Positions 28,869-38,459 of a DNA stretch of 38,459 bases are shown one piece after another. The position numbers and the translations under genes were made by a program. This DNA is from a virus (lineage: Duplodnaviria; Heunggongvirae; Uroviricota; Caudoviricetes): positions 1 through 38,459 of IMG/VR virus record IMGVR_UViG_2896607866_000012. One strand, written 5' to 3'. Every line of letters begins with the position of its first letter. Position 1 is the first letter of the stretch. Under the pieces are notes generated by a model. The model was not told where the DNA came from. It saw only the letters and a program-made list of their open reading frames with translations, and searched no databases.

Positions 28869-28872
28869 ATAC

Positions 28873-28907
28873 TTGACAATGTACCCATGAGATACATAAT
28901 GTACCCA
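28873..28907 (+). promoter_or_regulatory. PL-like early-left promoter with operator repeats
   Basis: TTGACA (28873..28878), 16 bp spacer, CATAAT (28895..28900); two ATGTACCCA direct repeats at 28879..28887 and 28899..28907. Confidence 0.5.
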
Positions 28908-29026
28908 AGAGAAACAACAAACAGGCAGGACGCCCACGAAGTAGCCGCCTGGGGCATATGAAGTCCAGGATGATTCGTTGAGTCATGTTGTGCCACTAGG
29001 TACTCATGTTAAAGCAGGTGTATGAA

Positions 29027-29302
29027 ATGAAAGTCCAGATTTTAAACAATAACTGTGAAGTCGTTTGGTCATACGACATAGCCGCCCATGTAGATCAGAG
29101 CGGCGATAGCTGGGCCAATGGGAAACATCAGATTATGGCTGGAGTTGTATTCTCTTTACGCCGTGCTTTAGAACAGGCTGAAGTCTTTCCATCAGGCCCT
29201 GAATGGAAATGGCCTTTTTCTATTTGTCCAAATTCGGAGAGTACATTTCAGAAAATTGGTCAGAAAGTCGCACTCGAAGAGCATCAGCCAACTGTTTCCT
29301 GA
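29027..29302 (+). CDS. hypothetical early-left protein
   Basis: 91 aa from ATG 29027 with AGGTG SD; overlaps a convergent minus-strand ORF that is split by IS911, so coding status is uncertain. Confidence 0.3.
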   Translation: MKVQILNNNCEVVWSYDIAAHVDQSGDSWANGKHQIMAGVVFSLRRALEQAEVFPSGPEWKWPFSICPNSESTFQKIGQKVALEEHQPTVS

Positions 29303-29421
29303 TTTTTTCAGGTAACTCGTCGGCATCGCAGAAACAACAACGCTCGATCTGAAGTGGCACACTGAATTTGGCCACCTGAACAGAGGTGATATGCTCACCT
29401 CAGAACAACACAGGTGCTCCA

Positions 29422-29721
29422 ATGAAAAAAAGAAATTTTAGCGCAGAGTTTAAACGCGAATCCGCTCAACTGGTTGTTGACCAGAAATACACGGTGGCAG
29501 ATGCCGCCAAAGCTATGGATGTTGGCCTTTCCACAATGACAAGATGGGTCAAACAACTGCGTGATGAGCGTCAGGGCAAAACACCAAAAGCCTCTCCGAT
29601 AACACCAGAACAAATCGAAATACGTAAGCTGAGGAAAAAGCTACAACGCATTGAAATGGAGAATGAAATATTAAAAAAGGCTACCGCGCTCTTGATGTCA
29701 GACTCCCTGAACAGTTCTTGA
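29422..29721 (+). CDS. IS911 OrfA (HTH transposase subunit)
   Basis: ATG at 29422; contains A_AAA_AAG frameshift motif at 29673..29679. Confidence 0.85.
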
Positions 29722-30590
29722 TAATCGGGAAACTCAGAGCGCATTATCCTGTGGTCACACTCTGCCATGTGTTCGGGGTTCATCGCAGCAGCTACAGATA
29801 CTGGAAAAACCGTCCTGAAAAACCAGACGGCAGACGGGCTGTATTACGCAGTCAGGTACTTGAGCTACATGGCATCAGCCACGGTTCGGCCGGAGCAAGA
29901 AGCATCGCCACAATGGCAACCCGGAGAGGCTACCAGATGGGACGCTGGCTTGCTGGCAGGCTCATGAAAGAGCTGGGGCTGGTCAGCTGTCAGCAGCCGA
30001 CTCACCGGTATAAACGTGGTGGTCATGAACATGTTGCTATCCCTAACTACCTTGAAAGGCAGTTCGCCGTGACCGAGCCAAATCAGGTGTGGTGCGGTGA
30101 TGTGACCTATATCTGGACGGGTAAGCGCTGGGCGTACCTCGCCGTTGTTCTCGACCTGTTCGCAAGAAAACCAGTGGGCTGGGCCATGTCGTTCTCGCCG
30201 GACAGCAGGCTCACCATGAAAGCGCTGGAAATGGCATGGGAAACCCGTGGTAAGCCCGGCGGGGTGATGTTCCACAGCGATCAGGGCAGTCATTATACGA
30301 GCAGGCAGTTCCGGCAGTTATTGTGGCGATACCAGATCAGACAGAGTATGAGCCGGCGCGGAAACTGCTGGGATAACAGCCCAATGGAACGCTTCTTCAG
30401 GAGTCTGAAGAACGAATGGATGCCGGTGGTGGGTTACGTAAGCTTCAGCGAGGCAGCTCACGCCATAACGGACTATATCGTTGGATATTACAGTGCACTA
30501 AGACCGCACGAATATAACGGTGGGTTACCCCCAAACGAATCGGAAAATCGATACTGGAAAAACTCTAACTCGGTGGCCAGTTTTTGTTGA
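29718..30590 (+). CDS. IS911 OrfB (DDE catalytic domain; made as OrfAB by -1 frameshift)
   Basis: -1 frame relative to OrfA; DDE integrase-type motifs. Confidence 0.8.
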
Positions 30591-30717
30591 CCACTTCAAT
30601 CATGTTGAAAGCCGATTCGTAGAACTGTTTTTGCTGAGTGTCGCTGAGACAGGAAAAGAGCGACGTTACGATGATTTTATTAATTGCATTATCAAGTTCT
30701 TTTTCATCAAAAGTCAT

Positions 30718-31154
30718 TTGATTTTCCTTTTATGTATACGGGCTTAAAAGGATACCACCGAGCCTGAAGTGGTGAAAAGACAGGCACATAACAGCTAAGT
30801 ATTTTCAACCAAAGAGAATCCTTAGCGTTGTGGTGAATGCGGCTCAGCGCACGCGGGTTAAGGTTGAGGCTGACAGTCGACCTTCTGTGGATACCCACCC
30901 GTCTGGTGTGCAACCTTCGCCAGGCACCGGGAGGCACCCGGCACCACAACTTTATGCTGTGTGTAGTCCTGGCGGTACCAGTTTGTACCCTTGCTTCCGG
31001 CTGGTACCGTCCTTTTTACAAAACAGAGAAGAGCATCACCGGACGACGGGCTCATAACCCAATCCATCCGGGCGGCTGCCACCGCAGGTGTTCTTCTCTG
31101 TTTTGTGGAGAAACTAATCGGCCTTGCAGGGTCGATATGATGAGGAGCAGCAAA
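30718..31154 (+). other. GC-rich structured non-coding block (candidate regulatory RNA)
   Basis: No credible ORF; nested inverted repeats including a 15/16 bp stem (31018..31033 with 31091..31106) and CGGTACCAG / CTGGTACCG (30973..30981 / 31001..31009). Strand assigned by operon direction only. Confidence 0.3.
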
Positions 31155-35978: not shown

Positions 35979-36071
35979 ATGGAAACGTAATTAACTCAAT
36001 AATCACCGGATGGTGAGGGCTTCCTTTTACCCAAACTCAGCGCAGTGCAGCGCATATACGTGGAGAACAAA

Positions 36072-36267
36072 ATGTCATTTATTAAAACTTTTTCCGGGAA
36101 GCATTTTTATTATGACAAGATAAATAAAGACGACATCGTGATTAACGATATCGCGGTTTCCCTTTCAAATATCTGTCGCTTTGCCGGTCATCTTTCTCAC
36201 TTCTACAGTGTCGCCCAACATGCGGTGCTTTGCAGCCAGCTGGTGCCGCAGGAATTTGCTTTTGAAG
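36072..36267 (+). pseudogene. yfdR: yfdR-like HD-domain gene, 5' fragment truncated by IS600-like element
   Basis: GGAGAA SD then ATG 36072; MSFIKTFSGKHFYYDKINKDDIV...QEFAFE then runs into the IS end at 36268; no 3' portion in window. Confidence 0.55.
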
Positions 36268-36310
36268 TGAGGTGTACTGGCAATAGCGGACACTACCATT
36301 TGTTCTTTTT

Positions 36311-37129
36311 TTAAGCAGCCATCTGATGATATTTTTCCCTGAAGGCTGCCGGGGAGATATTCCCCAGACGAGAGTGACGACGCTGACGATTGTAGAAAAT
36401 CTCAATGTATTCCCGTATTACTGAGATGGCTTCATCCCGGTTATTAAAACGATAGTGGCTCAGGCTCTCATTTTTCAGCGTTCCCCAGAAGCTTTCCATC
36501 GGAGCGTTGTCGTAACAGTTACCTTTACGCGACATTGATGTTTTCAGACCAAACTGCTCCTGTATGACCCGGTAATCGTATGCGCAGTACTGTGAACCTC
36601 GATCAGAGTGGTGGATTAGCCCGGCAGGTGGGCGCTGGCTCCTGAGCGCCATAAACAGGGCTTTACCTGTCAGCTCTTTTGTCATGCGCTCTCCCATGGC
36701 GTAGCCGACAATTTCGCACGTATAAACATCTTTGATGCCAGCGAGGTACAACCATCCCTCCTGTGTGGCAACATACGTCAGGTCCGCCACCCAGACTTGA
36801 TTTGGTGCTGTAGGAGCGAACGTCTGGTTCAGCAGATTTGGCGCAACTGGCAGATTGTGGTTCGGGTTCGTAGTCGCTCTGAACTTGCGTTTCTGCTTAC
36901 AGCGTAGCCTTAGCTCCTTACGAAGACGTGCCAGTCGGTCACGACCAACGATGATGCCATTCTCTGCCAGCTCCGTCTGGAGCCGCCGGGTTCCATATGT
37001 TTCGCGAGTGCGGATATGTGCCACCTTAATCTCCAGTTTTAGCCGCTCATCACTTTGTTTTCTGTCTGAGGGTTCATGCTGTACCCAGTTGTAATAACCG
37101 CTCCTGGATACACCAAATACCTGACACAT
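36311..37129 (-). CDS. IS600-like OrfB (DDE catalytic domain)
   Basis: 272 aa in -1 frame relative to OrfA; DDE motifs. Confidence 0.8.
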   Translation of the reverse strand: MCQVFGVSRSGYYNWVQHEPSDRKQSDERLKLEIKVAHIRTRETYGTRRLQTELAENGIIVGRDRLARLRKELRLRCKQKRKFRATTNPNHNLPVAPNLLNQTFAPTAPNQVWVADLTYVATQEGWLYLAGIKDVYTCEIVGYAMGERMTKELTGKALFMALRSQRPPAGLIHHSDRGSQYCAYDYRVIQEQFGLKTSMSRKGNCYDNAPMESFWGTLKNESLSHYRFNNRDEAISVIREYIEIFYNRQRRHSRLGNISPAAFREKYHQMAA

Positions 37130-37164
37130 CGCTTCAATGGGAAATTGTTGTCGCCATTGTTCGA

Positions 37165-37467
37165 TTAACGCGTATTTTTCAGCGACTCCTGTGCAAAATA
37201 CGCTGTTGCTTTTTTTAATATATCTCGCTCAAGGCGAGCTTCATTTAACGCCTTACGCAGTTGCAGAATTTCAGATTCCAGTTCAGCCACCGTGCGGGAA
37301 CCAGGAGTACCGAGCCCTTTTCTGGCGGCGGTAACCCATTGTCCTAAAGTGCCTTCAGGAAGGGATAATCGGGAAGCGCCTTCACTGATCGAAAGTTGAT
37401 TTTCAAGAACCGTTCTGACAGCTTCGGCTTTGAACTCTTTAGAGTAACGTTGGGTTTTTCTGCTCAT
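37165..37467 (-). CDS. IS600-like OrfA
   Basis: 100 aa [26 protein letters not shown]...; contains TTA_AAA_AAA slippery run (plus 37210..37216). Confidence 0.8.
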
Positions 37468-37531
37468 TATTAGCTCCTTCTGATGCCATTCTATTTCAGG
37501 AAGGAGTGTCCGTTAAACTCAGGCTACCTCA

Positions 37532-38459
37532 CAAAAGCCGGATCGGATTCTGGCTTCAACATTTCGCAGGAATGCAACTAAGAGACATTACTGAATCAAA
37601 AATTTATTCAGCAATGCAGAAAATGACGAACCGGCGTCATGAGGAAAACTGGAAACTCAGGGCAGAAGCATGCAGAAAAAAAGGGAAACCTGTTCCAGAA
37701 TACACGCCAAAACCAGCGTCGGTTGTAACGAAGGCTACGCATCTTTCATTTATAAAGGCCCTACTAAGAGCCGCAGAGCGTGAATGGAAAATGCTGGATA
37801 AGGCACCAATTATTAAAGTGCCTCAACCAAAGAATAAACGGATCCGCTGGCTGGAGCCCCATGAAGCACAAAGGCTGATTGATGAATGTCCGGAGCCATT
37901 AAAGTCTGTTGTTGAATTTGCACTGGCAACAGGCTTAAGACGCTCGAACATCATCAACCTTGAATGGCAACAAATAGATATGCAGCGCCGGGTGGCATGG
38001 ATAAACCCGGAAGAGAGTAAATCAAACCGCGCAATCGGCGTTGCGCTGAATGATACTGCATGTCGCGTTTTGAAAAAACAAATCGGGAATCATCACCGTT
38101 GGGTATTTGTGTACAAGGAAAGCTGTACCAAACCAGACGGAACGAAAGCGCCAACAGTAAGGAAGATGCGGTATGACGCAAACACAGCCTGGAAAGCGGC
38201 GCTGAGACGGGCTGGTATTGATGATTTCAGATTTCACGACTTGAGACACACCTGGGCAAGTTGGCTGGTTCAAGCCGGAGTCCCGTTGTCAGTGTTACAG
38301 GAAATGGGAGGCTGGGAGTATATCGAAATGGTTCGTCGATATGCTCACCTTGCACCTAATCACCTTACCGAACACGCACGGCAAATAGACTCGATCCTGA
38401 ACCCATCGGTCCCAAATTTGTCCCAGTCAAAAAATAAGGAAGGTACTAATGATGTGTAA
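37532..38459 (+). pseudogene. phage tyrosine integrase, 5'-truncated at IS600-like boundary
   Basis: Catalytic-domain signature R...HDLRHT...Y present; arm-binding N-terminus absent; the track ORF start (GTG 37506) lies inside the IS; stop TAA at 38457..38459. Confidence 0.75.

Follow-up and report, generated by a model that had tools for sequence, protein, structure and literature searches.

The closest described relatives of the element studied here are the phages SfV (U82619 / NC_003444), SfII, SfI and SfIV. The element was analysed as a viral record of 38,459 nucleotides (IMGVR_UViG_2896607866_000012, hereafter the window), which over positions 6019-38459 is 100% identical to CP024470.1, the genome of Shigella flexneri strain 71-2783, serotype 3a (PMC5754485). 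Judged by its genes, the window is an SfV/SfII/SfI-family myovirus prophage integrated at thrW. It ends exactly at the integrase stop codon, and in the source genome the tRNA-Thr(CGT) gene (thrW) lies 15 nt further on, followed by proA. Our main finding concerns the early-left (PL) arm of this prophage, the 9.6 kb at 28870-38459, which is broken up by four insertion sequences (IS). This is an ordinary and already well-documented decay route of Shigella prophages.

The window has the features of an SfV-family temperate phage. It shares with SfV and its relatives the thrW site, an SfV-type integrase (98% identical over the part that remains), cI and cro (99-100%), a Mu-like contractile tail (95-100%), a terminase and a yfdPQR-type early-left arm, and its head and terminase genes are of HK97 type. 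The genes of the contractile tail, the terminase and the entire early region are 97% identical to SfV. Unlike SfV, it lacks xis, has a truncated int, an amber codon in terL and four IS in the arm, and in sister genomes no gtr cluster stands beside the fibre gene. Moreover, its head/protease/portal module and its lysis cassette are closer to those of phage vB_EcoM-689R6 and of Escherichia coli prophages than to those of SfV.

The E. coli K-12 element CPS-53 (KpLE1), a defective remnant of about 10 kb at argW, carries a related yfdP-yfdQ-yfdR-yfdS-yfdT arm in which yfdPQR are intact. The original prediction, made from the letters of the window alone, described yfdPQR as retained. The homology is real (96.8% DNA identity), but all three genes are interrupted in the window. 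SHI-O remnants of SfII and SfV, which occupy this very position in S. flexneri strains 301, 2457T and 8401, were likewise interrupted by IS (PMC1550401). They are alike in phage family, locus, species and mode of erosion. However, SHI-O remnants span at most about 15 kb and have kept gtr, whereas the window prophage keeps about 32 kb of phage DNA and therefore represents an earlier stage of the same decay. In E. coli O157:H7, 62% of the IS629 sites lie on prophages or on prophage-like elements (PMC3271280), a comparable concentration of IS on prophages, although it involves one IS species and a different phage family, whereas the window holds three IS families in one 5-kb arm. Finally, S. flexneri genomes contain 312-367 IS, which make up about 7% of their DNA, and nearly all prophages in them are reported to be cryptic (PMC5596473, PMC6424224). 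The window consists of known elements throughout, and an IS-eroded prophage is already known.

Four insertion sequences in the early-left arm

Breakpoints were determined by aligning the arm to an IS-free E. coli homologue (locus L001) and to phage SfV. The arm resolved into five collinear phage segments parted by four blocks of foreign DNA, which total 6,034 bp of the 9,590 bp at 28870-38459 (63%), in agreement with the estimate of about 6 kb of IS given in the original prediction. The same prediction had called the four elements unrelated. Their number stands, but two of them, IS911 and IS600, both belong to the IS3 family and have OrfB proteins that are 35% identical (E = 7e-53). In all four the terminal inverted repeats are complete and the frameshift motifs are those expected. 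They were named from copies annotated as IS911, from the RefSeq annotation of ISSfl3 and IS600 (99.6% identity) and from Pfam domains.

Three of the elements are simple insertions. IS911 (29350-30598, plus strand, 1,249 bp) lies in an intergenic position, 47 nt after the orf33 stop codon, and is flanked by the 3-bp duplication ATC at 29347-29349 and 30599-30601. IS911 is expected to have imperfect repeats starting with TGAAGTGG and a -1 frameshift site, A6G, that joins orfA and orfB; here the repeats match at 18 of the first 25 positions, the A6G motif is found at element position 324, and identity to copies annotated as IS911 is 99.8%. IS1 (31242-32009, minus strand, 768 bp) is inserted in codon 29 of yfdP between two copies of the 8-bp target CAGTTCTC (31234-31241 and 32010-32017). 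Repeats starting with GGTAATG and an insA/insB' pair with an A6C frameshift site are expected of IS1; this copy shows inverted repeats matching at 20 of 25 positions, the A6C motif at position 307 and the Pfam domains DDE_Tnp_IS1 and Zn_ribbon_InsA. ISSfl3, of the IS66 family (33003-35755, plus strand, 2,753 bp), interrupts yfdQ near codon 214, with the 8-bp duplication GAAGGTCT at 32995-33002 and 35756-35763. The termini of this family are expected to read GTAAGCG, and GTAAGCGCCCC was found at both ends, together with three open reading frames (ORFs; tnpA, tnpB and tnpC) and the domains TnpB_IS66 and DDE_Tnp_IS66. Matching copies are named ISSfl3 in RefSeq. Its tnpC is frameshifted near 34693 by the shortening of a run of five C to four; in two NCTC genomes the run has five C and tnpC is intact. 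This copy of ISSfl3 would itself be inactive in the window strain. The frameshift, at 34693-34696, could be a real mutation or a homopolymer error that persists in the PacBio/Illumina assembly.

The fourth element, IS600 (36268-37531, minus strand, 1,264 bp), is complete, with inverted repeats and the A6G motif at position 317, and matching copies bear this name in RefSeq. Its junctions are not those of a simple insertion: the flanks read AAG and CAA, there is no 3-bp duplication, and 1,460 bp of phage DNA are missing between them relative to both L001 and SfV. The missing DNA comprises the 3' two-thirds of yfdR, orf29, yfdT, xis and codons 1-79 of int. The junction reflects an IS-associated deletion or a recombination between two IS600 copies.

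The phage segments that remain can be followed from the cI terminator (28845-28864, plus strand) onwards. A scan for promoters and terminators placed directly after it a near-consensus PL-like promoter (TTGACA, 16 nt, CATAAT; 28873-28900, plus strand), overlapped by two operator-like TGTACCC repeats whose copies are also present in the operator region of cro-cI; the stretch 28878-28916 and the OR region at 28073-28091 share one repeat family, D1. PL had been taken as the left boundary of the arm, and this promoter-like site with its operator-like repeats supports that choice. The first gene of the early-left operon is an intact orf33 homologue (29006-29302, plus strand, 98 residues, 97% identical to SfV orf33). 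Between IS911 and IS1 lies the frameshifted remnant of a hypothetical gene (30830-31140, plus strand), which matches L001 3709-4019, likewise annotated there as a frameshifted hypothetical protein. It probably belongs to the ECs1072 family, a name that is seen in the same arm of other E. coli genomes. The G+C-rich stretch 30750-31100, which overlaps this pseudogene, contains no RNA detectable with Rfam at gathering thresholds.

The yfd genes follow on the plus strand in pieces. Searches by tblastn with SfV orf32 and YfdP recovered codons 1-29 of yfdP at 31155-31241 and codons 28-120 at 32010-32293, on either side of IS1. The DUF2303 gene yfdQ is split by ISSfl3 into a 5' fragment at 32359-33002, holding about 214 of its 274 codons, and a 3' fragment at 35756-35944. 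The HD 5'-deoxynucleotidase gene yfdR is represented by codons 1-65 of 178 (36072-36267) and is cut there by the IS600-linked deletion. Beyond IS600, the integrase fragment (37532-38459, plus strand) matches residues 80-387 of SfV Int and is 98% identical to it; the ORF annotated as integrase begins at a GTG inside IS600 (37506). The integrase truncation was already part of the original prediction, which had missed that xis was deleted along with the N-terminal 79 codons of int. Excision is therefore blocked twice within the window.

The other disabling lesion, the amber codon of terL (15278-17011, minus strand), was also confirmed. Codon 331 is TAG (16019-16021) where SfV and vB_EcoM-689R6 have TGG (W331), and it parts the ATPase part (330 residues) from the nuclease part (246 residues). 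With int shortened, xis deleted and terL interrupted, the description of the element as a cryptic prophage, predicted to be unable to excise or package, is supported.

Succession of the lesions in related genomes

The original prediction proposed a comparison with related genomes as a means of dating the insertions. Four complete genomes could be compared: CP024470.1, UGYT01 and UGYQ01 (NCTC assemblies) and CP100042.1. IS911, IS1 and the IS600 deletion are common to all four. The proteins spanning the junctions, truncated YfdQ and truncated Int, were found by exact-protein look-up in CP024470.1, UGYT01 and UGYQ01. In CP100042.1 the ISSfl3 site is empty and yfdQ is intact (274 residues), so that ISSfl3 is the youngest of the four insertions. 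UGYT01 (loci L055 / L063) contains an extra IS911 in the replication gene, at the equivalent of window positions 25404-25407, which is 98.96% identical to the IS911 of the arm; present in this one strain, it shows that IS are still active in the prophage. In many draft assemblies the contig breaks exactly at the IS911 junction or runs on into IS911 and IS1. A scan for the junction patterns in a set of representative contigs with one genome per species, which probably does not include Shigella genomes, returned no match.

The terL amber codon was found in 16 of 18 loci of the lineage. The other two have TGG and belong to more divergent members, in which the stop-loss allele of the antiterminator gene Q is already present, and some strains show an additional 21-nt deletion in terL. 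As these lesions are shared among relatives, they were inherited and built up step by step, and disabling point mutations were no more frequent than IS events.

The left end of the prophage falls outside the window and was read in the sister genomes (L016-L018; L017 10657-11562). There, another IS1 lies 143 nt beyond the stop codon of the orf21 fibre gene and cuts the tail-fibre assembly gene tfa after 46 codons; the truncated tfa and the IS1 are followed by the chromosomal genes ykgEFG. The gtr cluster and the second att site, expected at this position in an SfV-type lysogen, are absent from it. The window itself gave no gtr match either, and it thus lacks the cluster that would make the prophage serotype-converting. 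Either gtr and the att site were deleted, or they were moved by an IS1-mediated inversion. The left-end IS1 is inverted relative to the IS1 in yfdP, and about 31 kb of prophage are bracketed by these inverted copies.

Neutral erosion, regional bias or selection

The prophage has most probably become fixed in the S. flexneri 3a chromosome, with IS transposition, the fastest of the mutational processes in Shigella, as the main agent of its erosion. IS911 (intergenic), IS1 (in yfdP) and ISSfl3 (in yfdQ) entered as three independent simple insertions with canonical target duplications, and the 1.46-kb deletion associated with IS600 took xis and the arm-binding N-terminus of Int. The arm may gather IS because it is accessory DNA, dispensable and poor in G+C, and because the genome around it carries about 350 IS copies, and once excision was lost, insertions would no longer be purged. 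The intact look of cI, cro, Q and the lysis and tail genes would then mean that time has been too short for point mutations, with one likely constraint: loss of CI would be lethal as long as Q and the lysis genes work, which would protect cI.

Polymorphism in the lineage was examined in about 30 loci over the prophage body (1-29349; 21,590 non-synonymous and 6,727 synonymous sites). We counted 34 distinct single-nucleotide polymorphisms (SNPs), of which 23 were non-synonymous, 8 synonymous and 3 intergenic. The resulting ratio of non-synonymous to synonymous rates (dN/dS) of about 0.9 does not depart from neutrality (p = 0.83), nor does the value of 1.5 obtained with transitions only (p = 0.45). 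Tail genes showed 4 non-synonymous to 4 synonymous changes versus 19:4 elsewhere, a contrast that is not significant (Fisher p = 0.15). No SNP fell in cI or cro, where about one was expected, so that this zero is uninformative. The very low diversity says that, on the point-mutation clock, the prophage has not been dead for long. The intact modules, for which the original prediction had offered either selection for immunity or tailocin-like functions or recent decay, are better explained by too little decay time than by such selection: the lineage SNPs gave no positive evidence for selective upkeep of the immunity, lysis or tail modules.

We then asked how unusual the distribution of the IS is. 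The ancestral arm makes up 5.0 kb of a 33.9-kb prophage, or 15% of its length, and the probability that all four internal insertions fall in it is 4.7e-4, uncorrected and for a region chosen post hoc. At genome-wide density (194-400 IS per 4.6-4.8 Mb, with counts from PMC7373316 and PMC5596473), four or more IS in 5 kb have a probability of 7e-5 to 9e-4, again post hoc. When the left-end IS1 and the NCTC IS911 are added, 4 of 6 events lie in the arm (P about 6e-3, binomial calculated by hand and likewise post hoc). The clustering of IS in the arm is non-random and statistically real.

Several observations weigh against a purely neutral erosion. Neutrality predicts a uniform spread of IS, and with 4/4 insertions, or 4/6 with the outside events, in 15% of the length, some regional bias or selection must contribute to the clustering. 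The dN/dS estimate is drawn from 31 coding SNPs, and the tail ratio leaves room for weak purifying selection on this one module. Furthermore, the structure of the left end was read in sister genomes and is attributed to CP024470.1 solely from its grouping as a place with the same neighbours.

The first alternative is that the arm is a true regional target for several IS families, with AT-richness, curvature or H-NS binding, lack of transcription or IS ends already in place as the candidate attractants. We regard it as somewhat unlikely. The clustering statistics speak for it, as does base composition (46.3% G+C in the arm versus 53.5% in the rest of the prophage, and 42-50% in the flanks of the insertion sites), and the youngest event, ISSfl3, again struck the arm. 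Yet four elements of three families with different target rules would all have to share one preference, and both the left-end IS1 and the IS911 specific to UGYT01 inserted outside the arm. In a sample of 60 E. coli genomes spread over the similarity ranking, no transposase was found in the homologous arm, and only 1 of 80 IMG/VR loci had an IS there. As a test of a hot spot this is weak, since most of these hosts are poor in IS and an intact yfdQ was the criterion by which the IMG/VR loci were selected. The arm had originally been called an IS insertion hot spot; as an intrinsic property of the arm this was not borne out in these mostly IS-poor hosts, whereas within the lineage four independent IS events, spread over time, did strike it. 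In our reading, the excess reflects dispensable G+C-poor DNA in an IS-saturated lineage, with a possible regional bias in addition.

The one IMG/VR locus with an IS in the arm belongs to a genome with an SfV-type cI (L082 7283-10602; IMGVR_UViG_2537561620_000010). Its yfdR holds an independent IS1, after which come DNA foreign to the arm and an IS911. Here IS truncated the arm a second time, in a separate case, and the independent IS1 in yfdR is a further point for a regional target. Another hit, H5, was first considered as a second arm laden with IS and was rejected, since it is an unrelated IS cluster near yjhR.

The second alternative invokes selection: polar insertions of IS in the PL operon, together with the loss of xis and int, would have been favoured for locking in the prophage or for silencing harmful early-left genes. 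All four IS are indeed found between the PL-like promoter and xis-int, or within xis-int itself, and the locking of serotype-converting prophages by IS is familiar in S. flexneri (PMC1550401, PMC5596473). However, the IS600 deletion alone stops excision and the later ISSfl3 adds nothing to it; no toxic gene is known among yfdPQR; and gtr, the cargo that would be retained, is not adjacent in the sister genomes, where IS1 and ykgEFG take its expected place. Because one event suffices, ISSfl3 came later and gtr is not adjacent, this selection is the less likely explanation, and we judge it very doubtful. A broader proposition, that in IS-rich hosts several IS families land by preference in the early-left arm of SfV-type prophages or that silencing of this arm was selected, is in our estimation distinctly unlikely. 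If it were true, the lineage would offer a natural time course of the stepwise disarming of a lethal but immune prophage, in a datable series running from IS911, IS1 and IS600 to ISSfl3 and then to a further IS911.

It is highly improbable that the host has domesticated the element, keeping its immunity and/or tail module to exclude SfV-type phages or to act as a tailocin. In favour of this, cI and cro match those of SfV fully or almost fully and are without polymorphism in the lineage, every tail gene in the window is full length and the tail SNP ratio is lower than elsewhere. But the tail contrast is not significant and the absence of SNPs from cI and cro is uninformative, as given above; tfa, the fibre chaperone gene, is truncated in the sister genomes, the overall dN/dS is near neutral and, unlike in an R-type tailocin, head, portal, protease, terminase and replication genes are still present.

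The locus matters little beyond annotation. It adds another case of a Shigella prophage that IS have immobilised and eroded, which is recognised as the principal way in which the genome of this pathogen decays. It is nevertheless a clean and dated example in which IS events outnumber and partly precede point mutations. Prophage-prediction tools will rate the element as nearly complete despite the absence of excision and packaging.

Remaining modules and other lesions

All genes without a lesion described here were checked one by one and found to be full length and 86-100% identical to their counterparts in SfV or vB_EcoM-689R6. The contractile-tail module (1-9965, minus strand), from the orf21 fibre gene through the sheath gene and gp38, is full length inside the window, with 95-100% identity and full coverage relative to SfV orf10-orf21. 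The cI repressor gene (28159-28833, plus strand) encodes an intact protein of 224 residues, 99% identical to SfV CI over its full length, and cro (27868-28068, minus strand) an intact protein of 66 residues, 100% identical to SfV Cro. CI keeps its Peptidase_S24 domain (Pfam), the QAG cleavage site, the serine of GDSM and the lysine of FKRL; with this site and these catalytic residues, the SOS response should therefore persist. Immunity of the strain to SfV-type phages should also persist, and the strain may still be capable of lysis on SOS induction. The genes of the lysis cassette (two holins, a GH19 endolysin and a DUF2514 Rz-like gene) have the lengths found in many intact prophages.

These results agree with the original description of CI/Cro, lysis, Q and tail genes as apparently intact, except for Q. 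This antiterminator gene (20882-21691, minus strand) has lost its stop codon by a TAA to CAA change at 20939-20941 and encodes 269 residues instead of 250, 19 more than in SfV and 689R6; this 269-residue allele occurs in more than 100 blocks of the collection. The stop-loss (20882-20941, minus strand) fuses Q to an 18-codon mini-ORF, MIFAEDGDMMLAFFKKYG, which in SfV and 689R6 is conserved and begins directly after the Q stop codon in the same frame. In addition, the small gene that separates terL from the portal gene (15051-15266, minus strand) has a 1-nt deletion near its 3' end and encodes 71 residues instead of 58-60.

A second in-frame TAG was found at 22416-22418 in a ydfU/DUF968 gene (21705-22694, minus strand), where 689R6 has CAG; it yields parts of 92 and 223 residues. 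We considered it as a product of decay in the lineage and rejected this, since the identical 92-residue allele circulates in unrelated prophages. It was found in 64 blocks of the collection, including prophages with different immunity and replication modules, at least one of which, locus L044, appears intact with an Int of 387 and a TerL of 577 residues. That both nonsense changes are amber codons was likewise rejected as a sign of a suppressor host, because each of them, TGG to TAG and CAG to TAG, takes just an ordinary single transition, and one of the two is an old circulating allele.

The mosaicism relative to SfV is concentrated in the window at 11530-15355 and 17570-20845. The capsid, protease and portal genes show 25-27% identity to SfV or no match, and 98% identity to vB_EcoM-689R6. 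The lysis cassette (holin_8, holin_3_7, GH19 endolysin, DUF2514) is found in neither SfV nor 689R6 and is common in E. coli prophages. Directly upstream of terS lies a gene for an HNH endonuclease (17629-17979, minus strand), the usual partner of HK97-type cos terminases, which is 77-78% identical to the SfV and 689R6 versions; the identical protein occurs in about 2,000 blocks of the collection. Look-ups of TerS and of the HNH endonuclease were uninformative for dating, each protein being present in thousands of unrelated prophages.

Finally, two Rfam matches at gathering level, to the C4 antisense RNA (79.8 bits) and to isrK (63.7 bits), were obtained at 26728-26916 on the minus strand, within the N-terminal part of a 278-residue ORF (orf37, 26440-27276). 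They suggest a control region of the P1/P7 ImmI-like antirepressor type. In sister genomes orf37 is annotated as products of 181 and 59 residues; we rejected this as a lesion because the DNA is identical to that of the window and the difference is one of gene calling. The RNA matches also suggest that the real orf37 protein is the shorter Phage_ASH product of 181 residues called in some annotations.

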